Source: Candidatus Babelota bacterium | Lineage (GTDB): Bacteria; Babelota; Babeliae; Babelales; Vermiphilaceae | NCBI GenBank assembly: GCA_039809905.1 | Contig: JBDHVY010000001.1 | Span: 420,001 to 452,000 of the forward strand | Direction: 5' to 3' | DNA: 32,000 bases | Shown here: positions 47 through 26,756 of the stretch, in pieces | How the letters are laid out: every line of letters starts with the position of its first letter | Numbering within the stretch: position 1 is the stretch's first letter | Made by a program: the position numbers and the translations under genes | The notes under the pieces: generated by a model | What the model was told of the DNA's origin: nothing | The model's input: the letters and a program-made list of their open reading frames with translations, nothing else | The model's database searches: none

Positions 47-99
47 AGATAGAATTAAAGAACGAGGGGTCGGCGTGTGTAGAAAATCGAAACATGGGG
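47..99. repeat. Two degenerate units of the dispersed GC-rich hairpin repeat family
   Basis: atagaattaaagaacgagggg-tc-ggcgtgtgtagaaaatcgaaacatgggg aligns with 9781-9838 (aaagaatgaaggacgggg ... aaagaaaatcggaacgtgt) and with 26702-26730 on the opposite strand. It ends in the family flank ATGGGGTTAAAA. Confidence 0.5.
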
Positions 100-181
100 T
101 TAAAAATCTTGATTTGACCTTTTTTATTATGATATATTCAAGTTGAATTTGTAAAAAACAAGAAGTAAAAAAGGTATTACC

Positions 182-3583: not shown

Positions 3584-3976
3584 ATGATCATTAATGATAC
3601 CAAATTCAATTCCATTTGGACCATTTCAAAATATGTCTACGGCCTTGTTCCTGTGCTCATCGGCCTTGATAAATTTTCCTTTTTCATTGTTGATTGGAAT
3701 ATGTATGTCAGTCCTTTTGCAGCATCCATTGTTCCCATTACAACTCTTGTTCCTCTTGTTGGTATTATCGAAATTGCAGCAGGATTGCTGATTCTGACTA
3801 AATATCCTCGTTTTGGTGCCTATCTTGTTGCTGCGTGGATTGGGATTGTTATTATTAATCTATTCATGATTGGTGGCCTTTACGATATTATTTTGCGTGA
3901 TATTGCCATTGCATTTGGTTACATTGTATTTGCAATGCTGACTGAAGTTAAAGAATCTGCTCAGACATCAATATAG
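3584..3976 (+). CDS. Small integral membrane protein, 4 TM (DoxX-like topology)
   Basis: AAGGAG RBS. Four hydrophobic helices. GLDKF...W and GIIEIAAGLLIL are reminiscent of DoxX-like proteins, but this family call is tentative. Confidence 0.6.
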   Translation: MIINDTKFNSIWTISKYVYGLVPVLIGLDKFSFFIVDWNMYVSPFAASIVPITTLVPLVGIIEIAAGLLILTKYPRFGAYLVAAWIGIVIINLFMIGGLYDIILRDIAIAFGYIVFAMLTEVKESAQTSI

Positions 3977-5222
3977 CCAATTTTTGTTTAATAGCTTCGT
4001 TAAAAAGCGGTTGAGTAATTTTAGGTAAATTTTGAACACGATTTGAAAGGGATATTTCTTTTATATCTTCATGAGTAAGAGCATTATTAATCGCTTTAAA
4101 GCACAATGTTAAATAGTTACTTGTGTAAGGACAATGAACTTCATTACTTTTTATATCTACCTGCAATGCCCGACTACTTAATCTTTTTGAATGTGTTTGC
4201 GGTAAGGGAAAATAAGCTATCATGATAGATGAAAGCTCTGTAATATCCCACAGATATGCTCTATTATTTTTACTTGAACAGGTAGTCATTAAAAAAGGTA
4301 CGTGATCGATTTCATCAAGTAAATGATTCCAGGAAACAAAACAAACCGGTTTTTCATGTGGTAAAATTTTAGTGATATATGTTTGAGAATTAAGAAGAAT
4401 TATATCATTGCTACCGTTAGCAATCGCAAGCCATTTTCCATCAGCAGAATGATCTATATCCGTTACAATTCCATCATAAACATATGTATGATCATATTTT
4501 CCCGTTTTCCAATTCCATAACCGTATTGTTTTATCATCTGATACGGTTACAAGAAGATGTTTTACATTTTTTGCATTATGCTTAACTGTATAGGATAAAG
4601 CAAAACGAACAACATCCGTATGTTCTTTCAATACATGATAATATGTTTTTCCGTTTATCTTATAAAAATCATCACTCACTTTTTTTAAAATATATTTTTT
4701 TATGCTCGGTACTAAATCTTCAAATGAATGTTCTGCTGATAGAACTGTATCGAGAGTTTTTCCGTTAACATTCTCCAGATCCATAGCCTTTTGATACATA
4801 CAGCGATCAATTAAAAACTTAAAAAGAGCATTCCTTTTTGTTAAAGCCGCAAATATTTGAGGCTGATCTAACTGTTTAATTTTATCAGGAATTAAGGGAT
4901 ATAATTTATTGAGAGCTTTTATTGATTGTTTATAAGCAGCAATAGGCTCTTCTTGCTGTAATTTTTCAATGGAATAGAATGAAGAATCTTGTTTTACAAA
5001 TTCATCAATTCGTTGAGAAAGCTCCCGACAATTTTTTATAGACTTGATTGGTCTTAATAGTGTTTCTTGACTAGAACGAAAGCTTTTTAAGAGTTTATAA
5101 GTATCTTCGTCAGTAAATGGAGACTTATCTTCAATCAACGGCACCTCCGGAAAATCCATAGACGATAAAGAAAGAATACTAAAGCACAACAACACCATAA
5201 GCATTCTTATTGTTTTATCCAT
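3948..5222 (-). CDS. Secreted WD40-repeat protein (424 aa)
   Basis: AAGGG RBS. Signal peptide MLMVLLCFSILSLSS. C-terminal half has WD40 signatures (LLVTVSDDKTIRLWNWKTGK; DGKWLAIANGSNDIILLN; NNRAYLWDI). The 3' end overlaps the convergent 3584 gene by 29 nt. Confidence 0.75.
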   Translation of the reverse strand: MDKTIRMLMVLLCFSILSLSSMDFPEVPLIEDKSPFTDEDTYKLLKSFRSSQETLLRPIKSIKNCRELSQRIDEFVKQDSSFYSIEKLQQEEPIAAYKQSIKALNKLYPLIPDKIKQLDQPQIFAALTKRNALFKFLIDRCMYQKAMDLENVNGKTLDTVLSAEHSFEDLVPSIKKYILKKVSDDFYKINGKTYYHVLKEHTDVVRFALSYTVKHNAKNVKHLLVTVSDDKTIRLWNWKTGKYDHTYVYDGIVTDIDHSADGKWLAIANGSNDIILLNSQTYITKILPHEKPVCFVSWNHLLDEIDHVPFLMTTCSSKNNRAYLWDITELSSIMIAYFPLPQTHSKRLSSRALQVDIKSNEVHCPYTSNYLTLCFKAINNALTHEDIKEISLSNRVQNLPKITQPLFNEAIKQKLAILMSEQIL

Positions 5223-5275: not shown

Positions 5276-5303
5276 CCCCATGCGCAAAGCATTGAGCATG
5301 GGA
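5276..5303. repeat. Hairpin repeat unit (single)
   Basis: ccccatgc-gcaaagcattga-gcatggga. It is near-identical in architecture to 14997-15024. Confidence 0.7.
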
Positions 5304-5390
5304 TTATAAAAAATGTTTCTACTATTATAAAGAATAGCTTATAGATAAAACCAGGGAATGTTGATCAATTGAGCCTATTTTTTATCTCAA

Positions 5391-5687: not shown

Positions 5688-6148
5688 AGAAAATTCCTTA
5701 ATGTAAAATTAAATATGTGATATACCCTCTACAACAACTGATTTTATACTATTTTTTATTGCCAACATCAAGTTTTTCAAGAAATAGTGACTTTTCTGAA
5801 AAGTTTGCAATGCTAGACTTGTTTTTCACCCTTTTTTATGTATTATTAGTAATAATATTATTATCATATTGTCCTTTTGAGGATTTCGTATGTTTACTTC
5901 AGCTGTTTCCGTGGATGCTTTTGCATTTCAACATCAATATCCCGTTGCTATGTTCTTTTCTCTTGTTTCTCCTATTCTTTTATTGTCTTTATCTATTACT
6001 CTCTTATACCTGCTGCTCGGCAGTCTATAAAATTCTGGCATAAACGCCTATTAATCACTCTTTTTTATCCCTATTTTTTATTGAATTTATATGTTTTTGC
6101 ATAGCTATTAGTTATAACTATGTTTATTTTTACCTATAAGGATTTTCC

Positions 6149-7198: not shown

Positions 7199-9655
7199 AT
7201 GAGTTACGATTTTGTATCAGTTGAAAAAAAATGGCGTAAAAGTTGGCATGATTCTTCAGCCAGGGTCCTCATGAGTAATAAAATGGATCATGAGGTTAAA
7301 AAATTCTACTGCCTTGATATGTTTCCTTATCCATCAGGAAGTGGATTACATGTGGGTCACTGGCGAGGGTATGTTCTTTCAGATGTTTATACACGCATCA
7401 AATGGCTTGAAGGTTATGATATCCTGCATCCTATGGGATGGGATGCTTTTGGTCTTCCAGCAGAAAATGATGCCATAAAAAAAGGTATTCATCCAAAAGT
7501 TGGAACCGCTACCAACATTGCCAATTTTAAAAAACAACTTCATGAAATTGGTGCTTTATATAATTGGGATAAGGAACTTGATACAACAGATCCTAACTAT
7601 TATAAATGGACTCAGTGGATTTTTTTACAAATGTTTAAAGCAGGTCTTGCGTATGAAGATATGGCCCCAATCAATTGGTGTCCTTCATGTCTCACAGGTC
7701 TTGCAAATGAAGAGGTTGTTGATGGCAAATGTGAACGCTGTGGATCAGAAGTTGTTCAACGAACCATCAGACAGTGGATTTTAAAAATTACCGCGTATGC
7801 TGAGAAACTTTTAAATGGCCTCGATAAACTTGAGTGGCCAGAAAAAGTTAAATTGATGCAACGCAATTGGATTGGAAAAAGTGAAGGTTTAATCTTTTCT
7901 TCTCCAGTAAAAGATTCTCATCTAGTACTTGAAACATTTTCAGCTCACTTTGAAGCATTCTGCGCCGATACCTTTTTAGTTATTGCCCCTGATCATGAGC
8001 TTTTACCATATCTTGTTGAAAAGGTATCAAATCGTGAAGAAATTTTGGCCTATGCTCAAGAACTCGTACATGAGCGTTTGCGAGATAAAGGGGCCGCAGG
8101 GCATGAACCCAAAGGCATCTTTACCGGTTGTTATACGATAGATCCTGTTGGCAATGGTGAATTGCCAATCTGGGTTGCAAGCTTTGCACTTGCCGATTAT
8201 GGAACTGGTATCATTAAATGTTCTGCACATGATGAACGCGATTTTGCATTTGCAAAAAAATACGGTATTAAGCTGAAAGCTGTTTTATTTCCTGAAGATC
8301 CAGCTCTACGTAAACAAGTAGAAAATTTTGATATTTGTTATACCGATATGAAGAAGGGTATCTTAGCAGAACCATCAATATTAGCAGGCAAAAAAGCTGG
8401 TGATGTACGTGGTGATATTGTTGAATACTGCGAAAGAAATAATCTCGCACGTCGCACAACCAATTATAAATTACGCGATTGGGTATTTTCTCGCCAACGT
8501 TATTGGGGCGAACCAATACCATTAATTCATTGCAAAAAATGTGGTATTGTTCCTGTTCCGGAAGATCAATTACCGGTGACACTACCAGAAATTGAACAAT
8601 ACGAACCAACAGGCACCGGTGAATCGCCACTTGCGGCAATTCATGAATGGGTGCATGTTGCATGCCCACAATGCAATGGACCAGCAGAGCGAGAAACTAA
8701 TACCATGCCTCAATGGGCTGGATCATGTTGGTATTTCCTGCGCTATCCAAATCCACATTTAAAAGATAAACCTTGGGATCCTGCTGATATGAATTATTGG
8801 ATGCCAGTAGATTTATATGTTGGTGGAGTTGAGCATGCAATTTTACATTTACTCTATGCACGTTTTTGGGTAAAAGTATTATATGATTTGGGACATTTAC
8901 CATTTGATGAACCATTTAATCATCTTTTTAATCAAGGAATGGTATTAAAATATTCAGAAAAATCAGGCCTTGTTGAAAAAATGTCTAAATCAAAAGGTAA
9001 TGTTGTTAGCCCTGATGATATGGTTGCAAAATATGGTTCTGATGTATTGCGCATGTATATTCTTTTCATGGGGCCACCAGAACTTGATTGTGAATGGCAA
9101 GATAGTGGTATTGAAGGTGTTAAACGCTTTGCAAACCGCGTGTATGATTACTTAACAAAACCGGCCACAATATTGCCGCAAGGCGAACAAGAAGATATTT
9201 CTGTTACACGCCGTACCCATAAATTGCTGCAAGATTTTCAAGAACGCATTGATTTATTTAAGCCAAATACAGCGCTTTCTGCATTTATGGAATGGATCAA
9301 TGATGCAACTGCCGCTTCAATGAAATTGAGCAAAGATTCTGCAGAAAAAATAATTATCGTACTTTCTGTTATGGCTCCGCACATGGCAAGTGAACTGCTT
9401 GAGCAGTTGTTTAGCAAACAATTGCAAGATTGTTCTTGGTCGTATGCAAATCCAGAATATACGTATGAAGATCACGTAGAAATAATTATTCAGGTGAATG
9501 GCAAACATCGTAGTAGCGTTACCGTTAAACGTAAAGCTGATCAAGATGTTGTTGAACCATTAGCACAACAAGCTATTGCACAATGGCTTGAAGGCAAAGA
9601 AATAATCAAAGTAGTTTTTGTAAAAGATCGTTTGATTAATTTTGTTGTAAGATAA
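7199..9655 (+). CDS. leuS: Leucine--tRNA ligase
   Basis: 818 aa. HIGH-type motif (GLHVGH), KMSKS motif (KMSKSKGN), CxxC zinc pairs (CPSC..CERC, CKKC..CPQC) and overall bacterial LeuRS layout. AAGGA RBS. Confidence 0.97.
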
Positions 9656-9662
9656 AAAAAAA

Positions 9663-9697
9663 GAAGGCGTGTTTATCATGGCACGCCCTTTTTTTAT
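9663..9697 (+). terminator. Rho-independent terminator of leuS
   Basis: aaggcgtg / cacgccctt stem followed by T7, starting 8 nt after the stop codon. Confidence 0.75.
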
Positions 9698-9838
9698 CCC
9701 CAGCTCCGTTTCTCTACGCTGTGGTCATCGATAGCCCAGTATCTATCCCCAATTCCGCTTCTCTTCATTGGGGTCCCCGTACAAAGAATGAAGGACGGGG
9801 TAAAAGTAATGGGTAATAAAGAAAATCGGAACGTGTAA
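9698..9838. repeat. Cluster of four hairpin repeat units
   Basis: Units at 9698-9724 ccccagctccgtttctctacgctgtgg; 9747-9773 ccccaattccgcttctcttcattgggg; 9775-9800 ccccgtacaaagaatgaaggacgggg (opposite loop polarity); and 9812-9838, a degenerate unit similar to 71-99. Confidence 0.8.
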
Positions 9839-9894
9839 GACAATATTTGTACAAACGTTAACAAAACTTACTACACTTTAAAGAAGTTCTATTC

Positions 9895-10467
9895 ATGAAA
9901 AATAAACAAATACTTGTAGCATTAGTCATTATATCTCTCAACTCTCATATCAAAGCAATAGATCCACTCTCTCTGGCTTTATCTGCAGGAAGTAGCATAG
10001 TTGCAAAAATAGTCTTTGATCAGGCAAAAGAATATTATTACGCTGAAGAAAATAGAAATAAACAAACACTCAAAAAACATCTTATTTCAAATGATTTTCG
10101 CTCAGCTATTGTAGATGGGTGTAATGAAAATTTCACCTCAGATTGCACTCAATTTGCCCAAGCTCTTCAAGCAATGGAAAAATATTATGCCGAATATAAT
10201 TTGACATCCTATCTCATGCAGGCAAAAGATGTTTTAAAAAAAGACAACAATAATATTACTAACCCTATTGTGACTGATAAAATTGAGTTCGATAATCCTT
10301 TAACTATTGAATGGTCTTATTTTCAATCATTACCTCTCTCTGAACAAAAAGATCTTTTAGAGCTGCACAGAAAATTAGTTATAACGCATACCCAATCCAA
10401 GAACTATAGACAAGAATTGGAAAATTTTCATATAATTTTTAACGAAAGAAACAAAACAAGGCAGTAA
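9895..10467 (+). CDS. Secreted Cys-motif protein (190 aa)
   Basis: Signal peptide ILVALVIISLNSHIKA. Motif GCNENFTSDC resembles SCEENFMPEC in the 2938 protein. Confidence 0.65.
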   Translation: MKNKQILVALVIISLNSHIKAIDPLSLALSAGSSIVAKIVFDQAKEYYYAEENRNKQTLKKHLISNDFRSAIVDGCNENFTSDCTQFAQALQAMEKYYAEYNLTSYLMQAKDVLKKDNNNITNPIVTDKIEFDNPLTIEWSYFQSLPLSEQKDLLELHRKLVITHTQSKNYRQELENFHIIFNERNKTRQ

Positions 10468-10482
10468 AAAAATACATAAAAA

Positions 10483-11373
10483 ATGAAGAGACAAATACTC
10501 ATTATCATGCTTTTTATCTTTGAGGCAAGGATTAATGGAATGCAGAGCCTATTAAGCAATACAGAAGTATTTTCATCCATAACTGAACAACTGTGCATTA
10601 TTAATAAATGGAGTCCTAAAAAAATAAAACATCATGTGAAAAACTTGGCATGCTGCAGCAAATTTTTACATCTCCATTATATGGCTGAAAATACTGCTAA
10701 AGAAATTATTAGAAAAACAGGCTTACACAAGAACAAAGATGATTTAACAATCGCAAAATTATTCTGTCATAAAATTATCATTGATAAAATAGAAAATCTT
10801 TTCGGTAAACCACCAAAATATACTCTCAATTTCTGTCCTGATGACTTAAAAGATGGTTGGTATCTCAATGCTACAACTTCTTTTCCACTCGTTGAACCTG
10901 AACAACAAACATTATTGCTTCGAGCAATTGAATTTATTGATATCAATAAAATAACAATGTTAATTAATGCAAAAATAAATCTTCGCTCTAATCGTTGCGA
11001 AAACCCTTTACGATTAGCCTTTCGACGCTATTTTTGCGGAAATAATCCACAAGAAAAGAGTGATTTATTTTGCATTATCACATTATTGCTTGAAAATAAT
11101 TTAGACCCTGACATCACAATTAATATGAAACAAAAGGAAATAACACCATTAATGCAAGCTGGCCTAACAGGTAATCAAAAGCTTGCTGGTTTATTAATGC
11201 AATATGGAGCAAATCCTTATGAAACAATAATATGCCAAGATGAAAAAGATTCTAAAAATAAAATCCTTGTAAACTGTTTTGAATTAGAACAAAGTGTTAC
11301 TTTTCCTTTTCTTGCTAAAGGGTGGCTCAAAACAATGTATAATGAAATTCAAGGCTACAAAAATAAGGGCTAA
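10483..11373 (+). CDS. Ankyrin-repeat protein with N-terminal signal-like sequence (296 aa)
   Basis: KEITPLMQAGLTGNQKLAGLLMQYGANPYE and NPLRLAF...IITLLLENNLDPDI fit the ANK consensus (TPL..A...G......LL..GA.p). Confidence 0.7.
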   Translation: MKRQILIIMLFIFEARINGMQSLLSNTEVFSSITEQLCIINKWSPKKIKHHVKNLACCSKFLHLHYMAENTAKEIIRKTGLHKNKDDLTIAKLFCHKIIIDKIENLFGKPPKYTLNFCPDDLKDGWYLNATTSFPLVEPEQQTLLLRAIEFIDINKITMLINAKINLRSNRCENPLRLAFRRYFCGNNPQEKSDLFCIITLLLENNLDPDITINMKQKEITPLMQAGLTGNQKLAGLLMQYGANPYETIICQDEKDSKNKILVNCFELEQSVTFPFLAKGWLKTMYNEIQGYKNKG

Positions 11374-11377
11374 GTTT

Positions 11378-12988
11378 CTAAAACAGCTCATTCACTAACT
11401 GATCAATCTGCTGCGCAGTAACTTCATCTGCCATACATGCATAAAATTTTTCATCATATTCACGCGTTTGAACAACGACCGGCATTGTTACTGCATGTCC
11501 CAATAATAATGCCTGTTTTTTTGTATCCAATGAAGCTAAAATTGACCGCAATGCTGTTGCGCCATTTACACCAGTTAGCACTGCCTGAATATCTTTTTCA
11601 TCATTTAATTGCGCAACAATCTTGGTACCAATTTGAGAAATTATTTCTTGATCAATCCCTGAAGGTCGCTGATCTACCACAAGCAATGAAACATAATATT
11701 TACGCATTTCTCGTGCAATAACGCCAAAAATCGTTTGGCGTGCAGCTTGTGGATTTAAGAATTTATGCGCTTCTTCGATAGTAATCAATAATTTTTTTGG
11801 TTCATCTTCTTTGCGTTGTGATCCCAAAAACTTTTCAGTTTTAGCAACATATTCTGTATGAATACGACGTGAAATAATATTGGCAATAAGCAGATAAACA
11901 AAGGTAGAAGTATAATTACCAAATTCAACAATAACGCTGATTCCTTTATCAATAAATTCCATCATTTGATCAATGACAGGTACATGTGCACCTTGGTGCA
12001 ATGGTTTAAAAAACGGTAAACGCTCAATGCGCTTTAATTTTCTATATAAGGCAGCAATTGATTCTGGATGTGCTCCAATTGATTGGGCAAATTCTTTTAA
12101 ATTCTCACCCTGATTTAATAGCACATACAACCAATCCTGCTTGTATTGGGCAACAATTAAATAGGCAGCTTCGATCGCCGTTGAATGTAAATTCAATTCA
12201 TCTTGTAGTGAAAGTAAATCTTCTACTTGAATGGAATTATATGCAAGAACAATCTCTACATCAGGCGATCCACCTCGCCTACGCGTAGAATCAGGATCTA
12301 AAGAAAATATAGCAACTCGATGAGGAAATAATGTTTTAAGCCCTTTAACAAATGATTGATGTTCTGATTCTTTACGTGCTTGCAAACCGTATTCACTGTG
12401 CATATCAAAAATTAAATTAATTGCTTTATCATTTTTGATAAGTCCTGCAAGAACAAGACGGGTGATAAATGTTTTTCCTGTTCCTGTTTTACCAAAAATA
12501 CCATTACTTCGCTCGGTTAATCTTTCCAAATCAATACACACAGGAGTATTCATATCAAGAGGACATCCAATACTAAAATATTTTTTACTTGGATGAATTT
12601 CATCACCAAAAATTAATGCTACATCTTTTTTATCTGCATCGTATACATACGTAAAATGAGCGGGAATCGTTTTGACCGGAGATGGCTTATTATCTTTGGT
12701 AAGCATCAGCATTGGTTTAAGAACTGCTGTTGCATAGATATCTTTTTGTTTCAACAATGCAGTAAGCAAAGTTTCCTCCGGAGTAGGAGGAAACAATAAA
12801 ATATCAGGATGAGTAACTTCAAGCGCAAGATCTGTAATGAGAGAAAAAAATGTATGTGTCTTACCCACAATCGAAACAAATTTTCCCGTTTTTATTTCTT
12901 CCAATGCAATATCAGGAGAAATACGGATAACAAGACCTTCGGTAAGTGAACCGGATACTATGTGACCAAGAATGCGCTTTAGCCCCAT
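11378..12988 (-). CDS. HerA-like (DUF87) P-loop ATPase
   Basis: 536 aa. Walker A GKTGTGKT, Walker B LLITIEEAHKF and an N-terminal barrel-like region (GHIVSGSLTEGLVIRI...GKFVSI). The start ATGGGG is preceded by GGGGTAAAAAC. Confidence 0.8.
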   Translation of the reverse strand: MGLKRILGHIVSGSLTEGLVIRISPDIALEEIKTGKFVSIVGKTHTFFSLITDLALEVTHPDILLFPPTPEETLLTALLKQKDIYATAVLKPMLMLTKDNKPSPVKTIPAHFTYVYDADKKDVALIFGDEIHPSKKYFSIGCPLDMNTPVCIDLERLTERSNGIFGKTGTGKTFITRLVLAGLIKNDKAINLIFDMHSEYGLQARKESEHQSFVKGLKTLFPHRVAIFSLDPDSTRRRGGSPDVEIVLAYNSIQVEDLLSLQDELNLHSTAIEAAYLIVAQYKQDWLYVLLNQGENLKEFAQSIGAHPESIAALYRKLKRIERLPFFKPLHQGAHVPVIDQMMEFIDKGISVIVEFGNYTSTFVYLLIANIISRRIHTEYVAKTEKFLGSQRKEDEPKKLLITIEEAHKFLNPQAARQTIFGVIAREMRKYYVSLLVVDQRPSGIDQEIISQIGTKIVAQLNDEKDIQAVLTGVNGATALRSILASLDTKKQALLLGHAVTMPVVVQTREYDEKFYACMADEVTAQQIDQLVNELF

Positions 12989-12995
12989 GTTTTTA

Positions 12996-13046
12996 CCCCA
13001 GCTTCGTTGCTCTTTGCTGGGGACCCCAATAGAATAAAACCAAATT
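12996..13046. repeat. Hairpin repeat dimer (one intact unit, one decayed)
   Basis: ccccagcttcgttgctctttgctgggg (12996-13022) followed by accccaatagaataaaaccaaattc. Lies between atpC and the herA-like start. Confidence 0.8.
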
Positions 13047-13099
13047 CAAAATATTCACGTATGAGGCTCCATCAACAAACAAGCAATTAAACCAGCTTA

Positions 13100-13354
13100 T
13101 TATTTTTCATCCTGCCCAATTAATGCCATTGCGCCTTTTCGCGTTATTTCCAAAAAACCTGGACGCTCAAGATGAATAACTCTTTTTTCATCGGTAGATT
13201 CTAGCACAAATGAAAAATCACTACCAGCAGAAAGAGACATAATAATAGGCGCATGATCGGGTTGTATAATAAGGGCACCCATTGGAGTTTGTGCTTCAAT
13301 CCACCGCACTGTATATTCATGCTCATGTTGCGGACTAACTATGGTAAGCTTCAT
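13100..13354 (-). CDS. atpC: F1 ATP synthase epsilon subunit, short form (84 aa, beta-sandwich domain only)
   Basis: L.IVSP......V..IEAQTPMGALIIQPDHAPIIMSL.AG matches the epsilon N-terminal domain. Starts 6 nt after the atpD stop. No C-terminal helical hairpin is encoded. Confidence 0.8.
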   Translation of the reverse strand: MKLTIVSPQHEHEYTVRWIEAQTPMGALIIQPDHAPIIMSLSAGSDFSFVLESTDEKRVIHLERPGFLEITRKGAMALIGQDEK

Positions 13355-13360
13355 GAACCA

Positions 13361-14869
<1,509 letters not shown>

Positions 14870-14910
14870 TTAACCTAAACCATGTACGTTTCTTTGTAAA
14901 GAAAGAGCCA

Positions 14911-14947
14911 TAAAAAAAGATCCTGCATATAGAGCAAGACCTTTTTT
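14911..14947 (-). terminator. Rho-independent terminator after the 15030-15485 gene
   Basis: On the minus strand: aaggtcttgc-tctatat-gcaggatctt followed by T7. The two G-U pairs become mismatches on the plus strand, so it is minus-strand specific. Confidence 0.55.
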
Positions 14948-14990
14948 GTCTTTTTTTGTAATATTAGCAAAAATCATTTAAATCTTTTAT

Positions 14991-15024
14991 GGGGTTACCC
15001 ATGCGAAAAGCACTGAGCATGGGG
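14991..15024. repeat. Hairpin repeat unit with decayed partner
   Basis: ggggtt-acccatgc-gaaaagcactga-gcatgggg, directly after the stop of the 15030 gene. Confidence 0.75.
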
Positions 15025-15029
15025 TATAA

Positions 15030-15485
15030 TTATTGAGCTTCACGCAATCCCTTAAGAAATCTATCATTTGTAGCATTACGCGCAATACCTTTAGTTAAAC
15101 TCATCAGACGACTCAAATACCATTCATCATCACGACTGGCTTCTCTTTTATCATAGTTTCTCACGTGCTGGACAAGCACTAACCATCCTTTTTTCTTGCT
15201 CATTTCGCTCGGTTCAAGTTCTGATAAAATTAATGGCCATATGTTAGTTTTAAAGCCATCAATTAATTTTTGAATATCACCCTCAGGAGCAGAAGTACTC
15301 ACTAATATATCATAAACGTCGATACTAGATGCTATCGCTTGCATGAGTTTGTCAAAATCTTCACGCAAAGCTTTTTTACGATACCCACGCTCTTCCTGCG
15401 GTAACTTTGTTCTGTGCGAACCATAACTTTCCTGCGCACCAAATAAGCAACAGAACACACTAGCCATTACAATAAATCTTTTCAT
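15030..15485 (-). CDS. Hypothetical secreted protein (151 aa)
   Basis: Signal peptide MKRFIVMASVFCCLFGAQESYG. G-rich RBS (AAAGGGGG) 7 nt upstream of the ATG. Confidence 0.6.
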   Translation of the reverse strand: MKRFIVMASVFCCLFGAQESYGSHRTKLPQEERGYRKKALREDFDKLMQAIASSIDVYDILVSTSAPEGDIQKLIDGFKTNIWPLILSELEPSEMSKKKGWLVLVQHVRNYDKREASRDDEWYLSRLMSLTKGIARNATNDRFLKGLREAQ

Positions 15486-16500: not shown

Positions 16501-16544
16501 CTATTACTACGGGATCCCCATTCGATATACAATGGAAAATGGGG
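16501..16544. repeat. Hairpin repeat (decayed unit plus intact unit) in the pgi leader
   Basis: ctattactacggga-t-ccccatt-cgatatacaatggaa-aatgggg. The left flank matches cattctattacgggatcccc found upstream of the MCE gene. Confidence 0.7.
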
Positions 16545-16561
16545 TTGAAAAAAAGGAAAAA

Positions 16562-17884
16562 ATGAACTCTCTAACCTTCGACTACCAAAACACCTGCCAA
16601 ATCAACGAATCGGAGTTGAGCCTTACATTCAATGAGCTTCTACCAGAAATTGACCGTATTACTGCCTCTAGCTCCAATTACACAACAGACTATGGGTCAA
16701 CTCATCTTCCTTTTGATGAAGCATTATTAAAAACCATAATGGCAACCGTTAAAGAAAAAAAATCACTTCACCCAACCACATTGGTAGTAATTGGAATCGG
16801 CGGATCAAATCTTGGAACAATAGCAGTGCTTGAAGCATTGAGGGGAAAGTTTTACAACGAGCATCATGCAACCAAGGTTTATTTTGCAGATACTGTTGAT
16901 ACTGATAATATTTCTGATATCGCGCAATTAGTTGAACATCAGCTAGCAACTGGTCACAACATCATAATCAACGTGATTAGTAAATCAGGAACAACAACGG
17001 AAACCATCGCTAACCTTGAGATATTTCTTGAAATACTCAAAAGTCATCGCCCATATAATTACCAAGACTTTGTTGTTGCTACAACCGACGGCGGATCAGC
17101 TCTTTATAAGCTTTGCCAACAAGAGGAATTTTCTGTTCTAGAAATTCCATTACATGTCGGCGGCAGATATTCAGTATTTTCTGCAGTAGGATTATTTCCA
17201 CTTTGCTTTTTAGACATTGATTGCAAGCAGCTTCTTCAGGGAGCACGAATTGGTTTTGAGCTTTGCACACAAAAGACGATGTATGAAAACTACGCTGCAC
17301 TGAGCGCCATTATTATTGCTGCCCACTACAATAAAACTCGTATTATTCATGACACCTTTTTATTTTCAGTTGCTCTTGAAAGTTTAGGCGCATGGTATCG
17401 GCAACTATCAGCAGAGAGCCTTGGTAAGGCTTTCGATAACAAGAATAACAAAATTAATATTGGATTATTACCAACTATTTCTATCGGTAGCACTGATTTG
17501 CACTCTGTTGCACAACTTTATTTAGCCGGTCCCGATAATAGATTTACTACATTTTTAACTATTGCTCAGTCAAAAACAAATCTTTTATTGCCAGAATACC
17601 ATGAATACGAATCTCTGGTAGAACATATCCAAGGAAAATCACTTTCCACTATCATGGATGCCATTTTACAAGGAACAAAACAAGCATACCTGAAAGACAA
17701 GCGCCCATTTGTATCATTTATTTTGCCTGAAAAATCTGCTTTCTATATCGGCGAATGTATGCAAATTAAAATGATTGAAATAATGTACGTAGGATTTTTG
17801 CTTGATGTTAATCCTTTTGATCAACCAGAAGTGGAAAAATATAAAAAAGAAACAAGAAATTTACTTAAAAACTTAGCCTTATAA
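16562..17884 (+). CDS. pgi: Glucose-6-phosphate isomerase
   Basis: VVIGIGGSNLG and VISKSGTTTET SIS-domain motifs. N-terminus MNSLTFDYQN is as in short bacterial PGIs. AAGGA lies 5 nt before ATG 16562; the in-frame ATG 16532 sits inside the repeat and lacks an RBS. Confidence 0.93.
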   Translation: MNSLTFDYQNTCQINESELSLTFNELLPEIDRITASSSNYTTDYGSTHLPFDEALLKTIMATVKEKKSLHPTTLVVIGIGGSNLGTIAVLEALRGKFYNEHHATKVYFADTVDTDNISDIAQLVEHQLATGHNIIINVISKSGTTTETIANLEIFLEILKSHRPYNYQDFVVATTDGGSALYKLCQQEEFSVLEIPLHVGGRYSVFSAVGLFPLCFLDIDCKQLLQGARIGFELCTQKTMYENYAALSAIIIAAHYNKTRIIHDTFLFSVALESLGAWYRQLSAESLGKAFDNKNNKINIGLLPTISIGSTDLHSVAQLYLAGPDNRFTTFLTIAQSKTNLLLPEYHEYESLVEHIQGKSLSTIMDAILQGTKQAYLKDKRPFVSFILPEKSAFYIGECMQIKMIEIMYVGFLLDVNPFDQPEVEKYKKETRNLLKNLAL

Positions 17885-22384: not shown

Positions 22385-24631
22385 ATGATGAAAATAAGTA
22401 AAAAAACCGCTATTAAAGCTATAATCATAGCTATATGCACGGCTTTTTCGGTACAAATCATGCCTATGTCTCGAGCATCGCAAATGTTAACTCCTGAGCA
22501 AAAGCGCGCACTTATCGCCAAACGGGCTGTATTTAATAAGGCAAAAGCAACTGCTGCAGCTTCCGCCGTACAAAATCCTATATGGATACGTACAAATGAT
22601 AATAATGTCATTGCAATAGCTCAATGGAAAATAAATGAAATGACGGAACTTTCATCATTAGTAAAAGATCAAGATGGCAAAAACAGCCAAACTAACCCGA
22701 CTAACGTATCCATGCTAACCAGATCTGATTTAGAATTACTTTCAACTGCTCTAGATAAAATATCATCTGGTCAATTTGATCAATATTATGAAAGTCTAAA
22801 ACCAGAATATGTAAAAAGTCTTACCGATAAAAATGTTGGCCCAGGACAATTGCGTAATCTTATTACTCTGGCAGGCACAATCAAAGCAACTACGCTTTCT
22901 GCATTTTTAGCTTCTTATTTTTTACCTAATGATATGCAAAAATATTTAATGGTTCCACAAATTGTATCTCCTGTGGCTGATTACTTAAAAAGCGAAATCG
23001 TGAAAAAAAATAGACTTCATCAAGCGCCTCTCATTGGCCATGAAGGAAAACTCGTCAACGTGGAATTTAGTAAAGATAGCACCGTTGCAGTAACAAGTGC
23101 AGAAGGAGAACATAATAATATTATTACCTGGAACATACCAGCAGGTCAACAATTGCAAACTTTTACTATTTCAGAAGGCGAGATAGATGGCGTACAAATC
23201 AATAACGACGGAAGTAGAATTGCAGCAATTGTATCAAAGAATTTTGAAATGCAAGAATTATTTAATAAGAATGAACAACCAACAACTGAAACAAAAGAAA
23301 TTCTTATCTTATGGGATGCAAAAACAGGCAGACAAATTAAGATCTTTGATAATTTACCCGATACCACCATCTTTTTCATAGAATTTAGTAGCGATGGAAA
23401 AAGAATAGTGATTCCAGTTGGACATGAAGTTACTGTTACAAATCCTGAACAAGAAGAAAAAGGATATATCATAATTGCTGATAGTGAAACAGGCAATATA
23501 ATTGCAACTCATGAAGTAGCAAATAACTATCCAGATGTCCAACCTAATCCTAATGGCAATACCTTATTAGCAAGATCAGAATCAGACCTTATTCTTTATG
23601 ATATTAACACAGGTCAAAAAATCAAAAAATTGGATGGGCCTACTGAAATAATTTATGATGCGAACTATAGCGGAGATGGAACGAAAATAATTGCACGTGA
23701 TTTTACAGCTCAAACAATTTTTATCTGGAATGGAAATACCGGAGAACAAATAACACAATTTAATAATATTGTTCCAAATGCATTTGCGATCAATCATGAT
23801 GGAACAAAAATGGCTACGGTTTCTCTATCCGAAACTACTGACACTATTTCTATATGGGATGTTGCAACAAAAACCGTAACTCATACTATTGATAGTAAGC
23901 AAACTGAAGTTACCTCTACACAATTTAGTCCTGATAGCCGAATGATTATTTCAACAGGTCTTGGTGATAAAAATATAATTTTATGGGATGCTCTTACCGG
24001 AAAGCAATTACACGCACTCAATCATAGTAACAACCTTCCTGATGTTAACTTTAGTTCCGATGGAAAACGCATTAAATCTCATTCTAGCCCGGCAATAGGT
24101 GAAGAAAAATGCACTACAATGTTATGGAATACTGACACAGGAAAAAAAATACACACATTTATTGCAGAACATGATTTATTAGAAGAGGATTCAAATTTTA
24201 TTAATATAATAAGTCCTGATGATACAAATAATCGCAACTTTATTCTCTGGACATCATTAAGTAAGGACGAACGCAATACTTTAGAAAAAATAGAAAACAA
24301 TCTGAATATCGATCAAGCACATTTATTGTATCAGTTGTATATGGCAAAGATCAGTAACACTCTTATTTCTCTCTCTGATAAGCAACAACTAGCAAGCCTT
24401 CCAGCTGATATTCTTAGCATAGTAAATACATACCTTAAGCCAACTCCATTGCCAAAAGCTACTTTAGCATTAAAACCACAACCGTTTGAACAACCTGCTA
24501 TGGTAACAACGTTATCAAAAACAGCTCCTGTAAAATCACAACCACTTAAGCAACCAGCAAAGCCCATACAAGAACCAGAAATACGAAAATCACAAACATG
24601 GGCTGATTGGGCACGTAGTTGGTGGAAGTAA
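22385..24631 (+). CDS. Large secreted WD40-repeat protein (748 aa)
   Basis: Signal peptide AIKAIIIAICTAFSVQIMPMSRA. At least 7 WD-like repeats (IITWNIPAGQQ, ILILWDAKTGRQ, LILYDINTGQK, IFIWNGNTGEQ, ISIWDVATKT, IILWDALTGKQ, TMLWNTDTGKK). Pro/Gln/Lys-rich tail ending WADWARSWWK. Confidence 0.85.
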   Translation: MMKISKKTAIKAIIIAICTAFSVQIMPMSRASQMLTPEQKRALIAKRAVFNKAKATAAASAVQNPIWIRTNDNNVIAIAQWKINEMTELSSLVKDQDGKNSQTNPTNVSMLTRSDLELLSTALDKISSGQFDQYYESLKPEYVKSLTDKNVGPGQLRNLITLAGTIKATTLSAFLASYFLPNDMQKYLMVPQIVSPVADYLKSEIVKKNRLHQAPLIGHEGKLVNVEFSKDSTVAVTSAEGEHNNIITWNIPAGQQLQTFTISEGEIDGVQINNDGSRIAAIVSKNFEMQELFNKNEQPTTETKEILILWDAKTGRQIKIFDNLPDTTIFFIEFSSDGKRIVIPVGHEVTVTNPEQEEKGYIIIADSETGNIIATHEVANNYPDVQPNPNGNTLLARSESDLILYDINTGQKIKKLDGPTEIIYDANYSGDGTKIIARDFTAQTIFIWNGNTGEQITQFNNIVPNAFAINHDGTKMATVSLSETTDTISIWDVATKTVTHTIDSKQTEVTSTQFSPDSRMIISTGLGDKNIILWDALTGKQLHALNHSNNLPDVNFSSDGKRIKSHSSPAIGEEKCTTMLWNTDTGKKIHTFIAEHDLLEEDSNFINIISPDDTNNRNFILWTSLSKDERNTLEKIENNLNIDQAHLLYQLYMAKISNTLISLSDKQQLASLPADILSIVNTYLKPTPLPKATLALKPQPFEQPAMVTTLSKTAPVKSQPLKQPAKPIQEPEIRKSQTWADWARSWWK

Positions 24632-24994: not shown

Positions 24995-26707
24995 TTATGT
25001 TTTCATCAAACCACTTGCACCCGATAAACTACCAAGAACATATTTCACGTCTTCATCACCAAATCGCATGCCAAGTCCGACAAATATATTAGCATTCTGT
25101 TTACTCACAAAATCATCCGCACCGAAGGTGAAATAAATATTGCGCATTACATACATTCTATTAAGCCACTTAAGGTGTGGACGTTTATCTTGATGGAATT
25201 TAGTTGGTCCTCTGCGATTAAAGCCACGGAAATCAAATCCTTCAAACGTTGTTACCCAACGGAATTTATCATTTTTGAATGGAAACTCATAATCAGCGCC
25301 AAGACCTGCAAACCCATCCATTAATCCAATACGTAATGCAACATCTCCAAATATTTTACCAAATTGCAACCCAATACGTATGCCATTGCGATCAAACCAT
25401 AATTTTTGCTGACGATAAACTGGTTTTAATTTTTCTTCTGATACTAATGTATTTTCATAAAAATTATCCGATAATAATTGTGGCCGAGCATCTGCAGCTG
25501 CTGGTGGATTAAATTGTTTTGCTGGATCAATGAAATCAAGATTATCATTGGTATAGACATATTCTTTATCTCTACGATATGCAAAACCTTTTTCAGAACT
25601 GGTTATTTGTATTAAATAAAAATGTTCTTCATTCGGGTGAACTCGAATATCAAAATATCCTTTTGAATCTTCATAGCGATAATTTTCCGCCGGACGGTGC
25701 ATCGTTTCAAAATGCGTATCAAATAAAATTTGCAAACGATCAAGTTTGCTTACATAATTTTTAAAGCCCGATACGGCAACTTTAAGATCTCTATAGGTTT
25801 CATCTTCATTAACGAGTTTACCCAGTAGACCTTTTCCTTCATCAATTTTTTCTGCAACAGAACTAACACTACGCAATCCATCACGTGCTTGTGCAGCCGC
25901 TTCTTCAAGTGCGTCAGTTGTTACTTCAACTCTTCCTGCTATGCGTCCAAAATCACGATCAAAGACATTTGATATTTTTTCGATACTTTCTTGAAACGAA
26001 GGAAACACATTATTTTCTAAACGATCAGCGAGCATACGTACATTTGTACCAATTTCTAAAAATGCATCAATATTTTCTTCATTACGAACAAACGAACGCT
26101 CAATAACATTTGTTACGGTAGAAAATTTTTCTGCGGCATTATCAAGATTAGTGATAAATGATTTGAGCTGGTCAACTCCTTGCGGTCCTGCTAATGCTTC
26201 TTTAACCGATTCACTTACTTCACGTACATTTCCAGCAATTTCTCTAAATTCACGCAATAAATCATCAAGATCAACAGGATCCATTGTTGATTTTTGCAGA
26301 GCTTCACCTTCACTGAGCGTACGCAATAATGAATCACCCGGAACTAAATCTATGTATTTTGGCCCTAAAAGACCATCTTGACGAACAATAGCACATGCAT
26401 TTTGATATAAAGGATATTCAGCTGAAACCATTGCTATGGCTTCCGCTTTTGCTTCAGTTTTTGAATCGGAACTAGAAAGAAGCGTTATTTCTTCTACCCA
26501 ACCAACTTTTACTCCAGCAATTTTTACCGCAGCTTTACGCGATAATCCTGAAATATCATGGAAATATAATACGTATTTTGTATATTGTGCGCGATCAAAA
26601 CGAAATGCTCCAATTTTAAAGCCCATATAACCAAAAACGGCAAGTGCTATTAAAACAAAGATTCCAACACGCGTCTCTATTTTACCTTGCAAACTAATAT
26701 TCCCCAT
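24995..26707 (-). CDS. MCE/MlaD-domain protein, long form (570 aa)
   Basis: N-terminal TM VGIFVLIALAVFGYMGF, then an MCE domain (YVLYFHDISGLSRKAAVKIAGVKVGWVEEI...VRQDGLLGPKYIDLVPG), an approximately 250-aa helical region and a Gly/aromatic-rich C-terminal domain. Confidence 0.85.
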   Translation of the reverse strand: MGNISLQGKIETRVGIFVLIALAVFGYMGFKIGAFRFDRAQYTKYVLYFHDISGLSRKAAVKIAGVKVGWVEEITLLSSSDSKTEAKAEAIAMVSAEYPLYQNACAIVRQDGLLGPKYIDLVPGDSLLRTLSEGEALQKSTMDPVDLDDLLREFREIAGNVREVSESVKEALAGPQGVDQLKSFITNLDNAAEKFSTVTNVIERSFVRNEENIDAFLEIGTNVRMLADRLENNVFPSFQESIEKISNVFDRDFGRIAGRVEVTTDALEEAAAQARDGLRSVSSVAEKIDEGKGLLGKLVNEDETYRDLKVAVSGFKNYVSKLDRLQILFDTHFETMHRPAENYRYEDSKGYFDIRVHPNEEHFYLIQITSSEKGFAYRRDKEYVYTNDNLDFIDPAKQFNPPAAADARPQLLSDNFYENTLVSEEKLKPVYRQQKLWFDRNGIRIGLQFGKIFGDVALRIGLMDGFAGLGADYEFPFKNDKFRWVTTFEGFDFRGFNRRGPTKFHQDKRPHLKWLNRMYVMRNIYFTFGADDFVSKQNANIFVGLGMRFGDEDVKYVLGSLSGASGLMKT

Positions 26708-26756
26708 GTTTCATTTCATTCCACACGGGGATCCCGTAATAGAATGAGAAACTGTT
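26702..26756. repeat. Hairpin repeat dimer overlapping the MCE start codon
   Basis: ccccatgtttcatttcattccacacgggg (26702-26730) followed by at-cccgtaatagaatgagaaactg (decayed). The first 6 nt are the complement of the ATGGGG start of the MCE gene. Confidence 0.75.

Follow-up and report, generated by a model that had tools for sequence, protein, structure and literature searches.

A palindromic repeat element as the probable source of the translation-initiation region of a herA-like gene in a Babelota genome

Can a dispersed palindromic repeat become the ribosome-binding site and the start codon of a conserved gene? The question is raised by an AT-rich 32,000-nt window of about 34% GC (the whole stretch of DNA analysed here, positions 420,001 to 452,000 of contig JBDHVY010000001.1, assembly GCA_039809905.1) of a genome that protein matches place in Dependentiae (TM6)/Babeliales, where a HerA-like ATPase gene begins in the flank of a repeat hairpin. 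Our comparisons indicate that the host genome carries a family of palindromic repeats resembling repetitive extragenic palindromes (REPs) and the miniature transposable elements with inverted repeats known as MITEs. A composite copy of this family fills the spacer between atpC and herA, and its 3' end has very probably been co-opted as the herA translation-initiation region. A first-pass annotation, made from the sequence alone, had proposed that the repeat carries a portable module of hairpin, Shine-Dalgarno (SD) sequence and ATG, which may have donated or remodelled the 5' end of the gene. For comparison 174 loci were fetched, and the source genome itself was covered by about 45 kb (including locus L168, outside the window) out of roughly 1.2 Mb.

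The hairpin, the ribosome-binding site and the start codon of herA

The herA-like gene (11378..12988, minus strand) encodes a 536-aa protein with a HAS-barrel and a DUF87/HerA central domain, as judged by Pfam, by PDB HerA matches and by 75-97% aa identity across Dependentiae. It is preceded on the same strand by atpD (13361-14830) and by atpC (13100..13354), which according to Pfam encodes an 84-aa epsilon subunit with the N-terminal domain only, and the order atpD-atpC-herA is kept in relatives. Over a compared stretch of 4.6 kb, which runs from 3 kb upstream of herA to the stop codon of the gene, the window shows no difference from an independent Logan assembly (L170).

On the coding strand, positions 13046..12983 read attGGGGT-CCCCAGC-AAAGAGCAACGAA-GCTGGGG-TAAAAAC-ATGGGGCTAAAGCGC, exactly as first annotated. 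This stretch contains the right-hand hairpin of the composite element (12996..13022, minus strand), recovered by hairpin scan and by folding, with a 7-bp stem, a 13-nt loop and a predicted energy of -12.9 kcal/mol; the 5' arm CCCCAGC lies at 13022-13016, the loop at 13015-13003 and the 3' arm GCTGGGG at 13002-12996. The GGGG of the 3' arm (12996..12999) is the sole SD-like motif upstream of the herA ATG and stands 7 nt before it, the spacer being the element tail TAAAAAC (12989..12995). Codons 1-4 of herA, ATG GGG CTA AAG (12977..12988), are homologous to the terminal ATGGGK...TAAAG of the element and, in single hairpins, to the 3' arm and tail. The left-hand, inverted hairpin (13023..13049) is decayed: it ends in ...ATTGGGG-T, its 5' arm has degenerated to TTTGAAT, and its intact counterparts in the alignment are CCCCAAT...ATTGGGG at 9747-9773 and in a copy upstream of ddl (L168a).

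ATG 12988 is the only usable canonical start, since it is the first in-frame ATG, GTG or TTG after the upstream stop and the next canonical start (TTG, codon 29) lies within the HAS-barrel domain (from residue 8 on). Concerning the ribosome-binding site, most genes of the window have AAGGA, AAGGG, GGAG or GGGGG 6-8 nt before the start (e.g., aaaaaGGGGGttttatcATG and ttaGGGGGttgctGTG), and the GGGG of herA forms a duplex of -6.0 kcal/mol (typical range in the window -4 to -6.5) with a canonical anti-SD, assumed in place of the host's own. The hairpin arm is thus the credible SD, as a GGGG at 7 nt is normal for the window and nothing else upstream resembles one; here the first-pass annotation, which had singled out the arm as the only candidate, agrees with our result. 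This GGGG is paired both in the local fold and in the fold of a 156-nt region (minimum free energy and centroid structures), and the 156-nt region folds no better than its shuffles (z-score -0.48). A scan of 12800-15200 for promoters and terminators gave no site in the atpC-herA spacer, with counts at or below shuffle expectation. Additionally, a 29-codon upstream open reading frame (uORF; 13082-12993) crosses the hairpin and stops 4 nt before the herA ATG; within it, an in-frame GTG is preceded by GGAG at 8 nt.

The hairpin is part of a composite element of about 120 nt (12977..13097, minus strand), which fills the spacer and runs into herA codons 1-4. Specifically, the segment that begins just past the atpC stop and includes herA codon 4 (121 nt, 13097-12977) matches positions 9698-9822 along its entire length, with a score of 55 against 20.2 ± 3.7 for shuffles (maximum 36), and the alignment extends through ATGGG-TAAAG. 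The paralogous copy (9698..9822, plus strand) lies downstream of leuS and comprises hairpins at 9747-9773 and 9775-9800, a tail and an ATGGGT; the layout GGGGTAAAAGTA-ATGGGT reported there by the first-pass annotation (9797-9814) is real and opens an open reading frame (ORF) of nine codons (9809-9838). A third copy, upstream of ddl in the same genome and about 8 kb past the window end, also aligns over its full length, and a fourth 3' end was found in the related genome L174 (13578-13608; GGATGGGG-TAAAAGC-ATGGGG-CTA). In the herA, leuS, ddl and L174 copies, the arm GGGG is followed by the tails TAAAAAC, TAAAAGTA, TAAGAGGA and TAAAAGC and by the termini ATGGGG-CTAAAG, ATGGGT-AATAAAG, ATGGGT-ATATAAG and ATGGGG-CTAGGG, respectively, giving the consensus ...GGGG-TAAAAnn-ATGGGK-nn-TAAAG. 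Two matches to GGGGTAA-N3-6-ATGGG are present in the window (0.00 expected), and among the 174 fetched loci the motif is confined to this genome (L168, L170) and L174. Since the layout of hairpin, GGGG, 6-8 nt and ATGGGK recurs in three further copies, whose ATGs open ORFs of only 9, 3 and 4 codons, the proposed portable module is indeed a part of the element.

The intergenic palindromic repeat family in the window is real. CCC...GGG hairpins (stem of at least 6 bp, loop of 8-20 nt) number six against 0.7 in dinucleotide shuffles, all of them intergenic, and the junction GGGRTCCCC with at most one mismatch occurs 8 times against 1.65 expected. The basic unit is GGGG(T/A)-CCCCnnn-(purine-rich loop of 12-15 nt ending in GAA)-nnnGGGG-TWAAA, arranged as singlets, as abutted inverted doublets or as the composite, in both orientations relative to transcription. 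The 32 kb hold about nine units, every one intergenic: seven intact, including one G-U-paired unit that folds on the minus strand only (26702-26730), and two decayed (66-105 and 9698-9724). Further copies are present in L168 and in relatives. Among Dependentiae loci GGGRTCCCC is found almost only in close relatives; numerous further matches, in cyanobacterial loci such as L069, seem to have no relation to the family. The inner stem bases vary yet stay complementary (AGC/GCT, GT/AC, AAT/ATT, ATGC/GCAT, GTGT/ACAT and others). At stem positions 5-7 of 17 copies, 48 of the 51 cells are paired against 32.8 ± 2.7 with partners shuffled (pairs AT/GC/GT, TA/AT/GC and TA/GC/CG, respectively), a covariation that is partly ascertainment, as several copies came from the hairpin scan and pairing at positions 5-6 is partly built in. 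Pairs were counted from the stem ends by script instead of from a MAFFT alignment, in which the unequal loops put the 3' arms out of register.

Orthologous junctions and the origin of the extra codons

Approximately 100 Dependentiae orthologs (75-94% aa identity) begin with MKK[ILV]LGHI[IV]SGSL, and the N-terminus xGLK(R/K) is found in the window's small sub-clade only. The alignment of orthologs and their 5' regions that the first-pass annotation had put forward as a check thus shows the MGLK N-terminus to be lineage-specific, which favours a repeat-derived start. A codon-based neighbor-joining tree of the closest relatives with retrieved 5' regions gave ((WIN,L173),(L171,(L091,L174))) with 100% bootstrap (WIN being the window), followed by L081 and L082 and then by L036 and the rest. 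In the window, hairpin and 7 nt are followed by ATG GGG CTA AAG CGC. Its sister L173 (92% nt identity) has no hairpin, carries tandem 57-nt repeats of another family and starts with ATG AAG CGC. In L171/L172 (97% aa identity) the start codon itself lies in the hairpin 3' arm, with AAGGA in the loop 7 nt upstream, and herA begins with ATG GGG TTA AAA AAA ATC; the full reading in L171 is attGGGGT-CCCCATGT-gaaaaggattgaa-ACATGGGG-TTAAAAAAAATC, where ACATGGGG-TTAAAAAAAATC encodes MGLKKI. L091/L174 have a terminator and an inserted 424-aa gene after atpC and start with TTG TTA AAG CGC. Hairpins or their remnants occupy the same place upstream of herA in L082 and L084 (decayed remnant, 5-6 nt, ATG AAA), in L089 (intact weak hairpin of -5.5 kcal/mol, 7 nt, ATG AAG AAA) and in L050 (double hairpin, 33 nt, ATG AAA AAA, with an in-frame ATG 6 nt after the hairpin). 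Finally, L036, L088, L090, L092-L094 and L001 have short spacers without a repeat and an MKK start (TTG in L036).

The extra Gly-Leu of L171 is unambiguously the 3' arm and tail of the repeat; the 15 nt ACATGGGGTTAAAAA of its arm plus tail are identical to the non-coding window copy at 66-105. Comparing window 66-115 with L171:5973-6025, the non-coding copy continues as ...ACATGGGGTTAAAAATCTTGA and matches the L171 herA start ...ACATGGGGTTAAAAAAAATCTTAG past the A-run, which hints either at copies that took a few bases of herA with them or at an element tail containing ATCTT. As xTG-GGR-YTR is present in the window, L171 and L081, it was most probably present in the common ancestor of the sub-clade. 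The atpC-herA junction is a rearrangement hot spot, because it differs in each sister lineage (canonical ATG AAG CGC, inserted 424-aa gene, abutment on atpC), and L173 and L091/L174 represent further rearrangements of the same junction. The ortholog N-termini, the hairpin arm of L171 and the recurring composite ends together support the earlier proposal that the repeat donated or remodelled the 5' end of herA.

According to the explanation that we favour, the 3' arm of the last hairpin would supply the SD-like GGGG, the element tail the 7-nt spacer, and the terminal ATG-GGG-CTA the start codon and codons 2-3, while the Leu codon CTA would now occupy what was ancestrally the start, which other lineages have as ATG or TTG. 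Because no promoter or terminator was predicted in the spacer, herA is probably carried on the atpDC transcript, and ribosomes would use the G-run as SD. Sequestration of an SD by a stem should depress translation; the hairpin is therefore predicted to compete with SD use and to keep HerA synthesis low relative to ATP synthase. In the manner of a REP, it could also shield the atp message from 3' exonucleases.

Several observations weigh against this explanation. The first-pass annotation had itself held that an ortholog with the same N-terminus and no repeat would speak against a repeat-derived start, and L081 (94% aa identity) is nominally such a case, with GTG GGA TTG AAG CGC placed 1 nt after the atpC stop and no hairpin; were its state ancestral, the added Gly-Leu would be older than the element. 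With the tree and L171 taken into account, however, it is best read as a deletion derivative, since its atpC is about three codons shorter and the stop TAA aligns with the TAAAA tail of the element. The canonical ATG AAG CGC of the sister L173 requires at least one extra 6-nt or rearrangement event. When only the 13-nt tail is considered, a similarity as close as that observed (edit distance 3) turns up empirically at about 1e-3 of sites, which is suggestive only and weaker than visual inspection would have it; the case for homology leans on the whole-length alignment and on recurrence. The family consensus is drawn from few copies within the 45 kb of source genome, the duplex energies depend on the assumed anti-SD, and a crude calculation of SD accessibility in 15 orthologs did not single out the window. 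Finally, all composites ending in ATGGGK come from the same sub-clade, whose herA begins with xGL, and these copies could have carried off a piece of herA.

This last point leads to the reverse direction of transfer, in which the copy upstream of herA was the source and the first 12 nt or so of herA were carried to 9.7 kb, to the ddl upstream region and to L174; we consider it unlikely. In its favour, five relatives (L091, L050, L089, L001 and L084) have no counterpart of the 9.7 kb copy in the spacer downstream of leuS, so that this copy looks young, and the copy at 66-105 continues as ...AAAAATCTT, like the L171 herA codons AAA-ATC-TT. However, ATGGGG is the commonest 3' arm of single hairpins unrelated to herA (16539, 26707, L091:74-79, L089, L168c), and in L168b (hairpin-CGTAA-ATGGGG-A-CCCC) it is merely the 5' flank or arm of the next unit. 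Even under reverse transfer the ATG-GGG would be repeat-derived, and only the few bases after it would come from the gene.

Equally doubtful is the bolder idea that the composite is a mobile start cassette, its SD-spacer-AUG silent within the hairpin, which re-equips genes whose initiation region was destroyed by rearrangement. If true, it would explain the four to five start solutions (ATG-GGG-CTA, ATG in the arm, GTG, TTG and canonical ATG) among herA genes 92-97% identical in protein, as well as the in-frame ATGGGG that another copy provides to an MlaD-like gene. Were such a cassette selected, or mobilised by an enzyme preferring gene 5' ends, it would represent a new persistence route for selfish repeats in streamlined intracellular genomes.

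Slightly less likely still is coincidence, whereby the Gly-Leu extension arose in herA independently and the element either inserted later or adjoins a lookalike by chance. The repeat-free start of L081, with an AGGAG SD inside atpC, would fit such a history, and YTRAAR is a motif of low information (Leu/Lys codons in an AT-rich genome). The herA start context ATGGGGCTAAAG matches the 3' arm plus tail of the family; among the copies cited in the first-pass annotation, those at 94-105 (ATGGGGTTAAAA) and 16539-16550 (ATGGGGTTGAAA) are exact, while that at 5298-5309 has two mismatches. The motif ATGGGGYTRAAR is unenriched when up to two mismatches are allowed (27 against 18), in line with this reading, but its exact matches number three against 0.08 expected. 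Moreover, in L171 a complete family hairpin has the herA start codons paired in its 3' arm, and its 3' half recurs in the non-coding copy at 66-105, and the GGGG-tail-ATGGGK terminus is common to four composite copies.

The least probable reading makes the hairpin a dedicated translational control (an RNA thermometer, a protein-operated switch or coupling via the 29-codon uORF) selected for HerA regulation: the pairing of the SD-like GGGG in both folds, the stable structures that also involve the start regions of L171 and L084, and the uORF with its GGAG would suit it, but the same hairpins occur in either orientation and in spacers with no start codon nearby, of the hairpins upstream of herA that of L089 is weak and those of L082 and L084 are decayed, with none in L081, L173, L036, L088 and L090, the 156-nt z-score is unremarkable, and an open frame of 29 codons, which the 9.7 kb copy does not preserve, has by our estimate a probability of about 0.1 per frame of arising by chance in DNA of such base composition. 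Within the favoured explanation, any translational effect is probably a tolerated by-product and not an evolved switch, since sister lineages let the hairpin decay or lost it, like hairpins are found antisense and away from starts, and neither the z-score nor the accessibility comparison singles out the window.

Other copies, neighbouring genes and related observations

Five single-hairpin copies lie elsewhere in the window. The copy at 66..105 (plus strand) has a decayed 5' arm, ends in ACATGGGGTTAAAAATCTT and is by eye about 79% identical to the L171 herA-start hairpin. Two copies are antisense to their flanking genes: the first at 5277..5309 (plus strand; CCCATGC...GCATGGG-ATTATAAAAA) and the second upstream of atpD (14991..15030, plus strand), in a spacer that is occupied in L036, L082 and L089 as well. 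The copy at 16511..16550 (plus strand; GGGAT-CCCCATT...AATGGGG-TTGAAA) lies in the pgi 5' region. The longest pgi ORF begins at 16532 inside the hairpin loop, while the NCBIfam profile aligns from residue 11 onward; judging by AAGGAAAAAATG at 16563, the real pgi start would be at that position, 18 nt after the hairpin. Finally, the copy at 26702..26735 (minus strand; GGGAT-CCCCGTGT...ACATGGGG) places its ATGGGG in frame with an MlaD/MCE-like gene (24995-26735, minus strand), a second case of the layout: the first ATG of the ORF (26707) is the ATGGGG of the hairpin 3' arm. Orthologs of this gene mostly start with (M/L)QGKIETRVG, so that its canonical start would be the TTG at codon 6, 9 nt after the hairpin GGGG, and the annotated N-terminal extensions are very variable in relatives.

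Rfam searches of the whole window at gathering thresholds and of 9600-13200 at E ≤ 1 gave no relevant match. Among the window ORFs scanned none has a transposase domain, and no RAYT gene was seen in the 45 kb of source genome. The doublet is an inverted repeat with TTTTA...TAAAA-like flanks, and no clean pair of filled and empty sites with a target-site duplication could be defined. Next to the 9.7 kb copy, a clean intrinsic-terminator-like hairpin, GGCGTG-tttatcatg-GCACGCC followed by T7, lies directly after leuS (9664-9696), and the composite follows on its 3' side without a break. We considered whether the 9.7 kb and 13 kb composites, being inverted, mark the ends of an invertible 3.2-kb segment, and rejected this, gene order being unchanged in L084, L170 and L171. 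A second, unrelated palindromic family with the core CACTCAGGACGAGCGG / CCGCTCGTCCTGAGTG was located at L173:1-142, L171 about 5830-5890, L050:5968-5995 and L082:1005-1025; upstream of herA it takes the form of a long hairpin in L171 and of the tandem 57-nt repeats in L173, and it flanks hairpins of the first family in L050 and L082. Additionally, a gene-free stretch of 540 nt in the same genome (L168:5069-5612, about 5 kb past the window end) contains several G/C-rich stems, among them GGGGTTCTAGG...CCCCTAGG and CCCCAAC-ggtctaa-GTTGGGG, and could hold a structured RNA gene.

Concerning the junctions of relatives, L091:2642-3995 and L174:4645-5998, the lineage closest to L171, have an intrinsic-terminator-like hairpin after atpC and then the 424-aa gene, and the TTG start of herA is just downstream of, or overlaps, the stop codon of this gene. 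We examined whether the L091 insert is the 424-aa WD40-like gene of the window (3948-5222) moved by repeat recombination and rejected it, as BLASTP (E = 0.01) indicated no real homology; the alignments are all weak and include a WD40-like 'LW..KTG' stretch. In L084 (2900-3020) and L089 (3900-4010) a hairpin element lies between a decayed duplicate of the herA start (ggtgtggtcaATGAAAAAAAAATTGTTGGCCACATTG... and ggtgtggtcATGAAAAAAATTTTAACC..., respectively) and the real start. The duplicate leaves a pseudo-start uORF of 14-17 codons, which in L089 ends in the hairpin loop, and the layout looks like an insertion into the herA 5' end rescued by duplication of about 30 nt or more.

The HerA-like ATPase is unusually conserved, with 75-97% aa identity across Dependentiae where the DNA is 72-87% identical, and is about 50% identical to proteins in metagenome-assembled genomes (MAGs) labelled Cyanobacteria, Chloroflexi and Rhodothermales. 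Its gene is mostly found directly after atpD-atpC (loci L001-L167), and no NurA-like partner is adjacent to it in the window. The atpC product comprises the N-terminal beta-sandwich of epsilon without the C-terminal helical domain; this 80-84-aa form is common to all close relatives, and its last 3-7 codons differ with each junction rearrangement. The window also encodes two eukaryote-like WD40 beta-propeller proteins (3948-5222 and 22385-24631), and ankyrin-repeat proteins are found in the herA-leuS interval of relatives (L084), a WD40/ankyrin content typical of amoeba-associated Dependentiae.

Comparison with known repeats and biological meaning

REPs between operon genes act as mRNA stabilisers or attenuators, and the present copies likewise lie between co-directional operon genes. 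Apart from this location, the family shares with REP, BIME and REPIN elements, the RAYT-mobilised palindromes of Proteobacteria (PMC3116915, PMC3337134), the form of short imperfect palindromes of about 27 nt, multi-copy and intergenic only, as well as inverted doublets joined as GGGG-T-CCCC (9747-9800, L036, L050, L089 and L168a), copies at orthologous spacers of relatives and stems kept by compensatory variation. In contrast to REPs and REPINs, it has no GTAG-type 5' tetranucleotide (the 5' flanks being (A/T)TGGGGT, ACGGGAT or GGGGA), the doublet arms abut directly with no spacer between units, and it belongs to another phylum; unlike classical REPs, the present element overlaps a start codon. 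The family is not filed as REP sensu stricto, because it has no GTAG-type flank, a RAYT was sought within the 45 kb only, and no target-site duplication was definable. Its presence/absence polymorphism is MITE-like: the 9.7 kb copy is lacking in five relatives and the copy upstream of herA has a patchy distribution in the tree.

RNA thermometers and attenuator-type leaders sequester the SD in hairpins, and in the herA element too a stable stem directly precedes the AUG, its 3' strand being the G-rich SD. The herA hairpin differs from thermometers and riboswitch-like leaders in being absent or decayed in most orthologs, with junctions that differ even among 97%-identical relatives, and in being a generic member of a dispersed repeat family, with no Rfam match. 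A literature search for Dependentiae repeats and for REP-like elements providing an SD or start codon returned nothing specific, which is absence of evidence only.

For coding sequence that derives from a repeat, the nearest parallel is offered by the Rickettsia palindromic elements (RPEs), which, as other MITEs, fuse in frame with host ORFs (PMC10969869; for R. felis and R. bellii, PMC1166351 and PMC1458961). In both cases a palindromic repeat in a reduced intracellular genome adds codons to a conserved, housekeeping-type gene without destroying it; herA codons 1-3 align to the element terminus, and codons 1-4 of L171 correspond to the hairpin arm and tail, assuming translation from the sole canonical start. 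RPEs are about 100-150 bp long, internal and add a peptide segment, whereas here two to three codons would be added together with the start codon and the ribosome-binding site. Correia elements of Neisseria, ERIC sequences and insertion sequence (IS) ends supply promoters or alter the mRNA processing of adjacent genes (compare PMC10969869). The present element is similar to these in that a repeat beside a gene provides expression signals, and differs in that the signals would be translational, SD and AUG, instead of concerning transcription or RNase III processing. The terms 'start codon' and 'Shine-Dalgarno' do not occur in the MITE review (PMC10969869).

Several consequences may follow for the Dependentiae, a phylum with very few cultured members, in which we found a repeat family with neither an Rfam match nor a mention in the literature searched. 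Gene callers misplace or vary starts near these repeats in Dependentiae MAGs, as is seen in herA N-termini annotated as V, L or MGGVI and in the variable extensions of the MlaD-like gene. Although the mechanism of gene expression itself is not new, the locus would offer a clean natural example of repeat DNA remodelling a gene 5' end, at a junction that turns over between genomes about 97% identical in the protein, and a base-by-base record of how a selfish palindromic repeat may replace the ribosome-binding site and the start codon of an essential-looking, extremely conserved gene.

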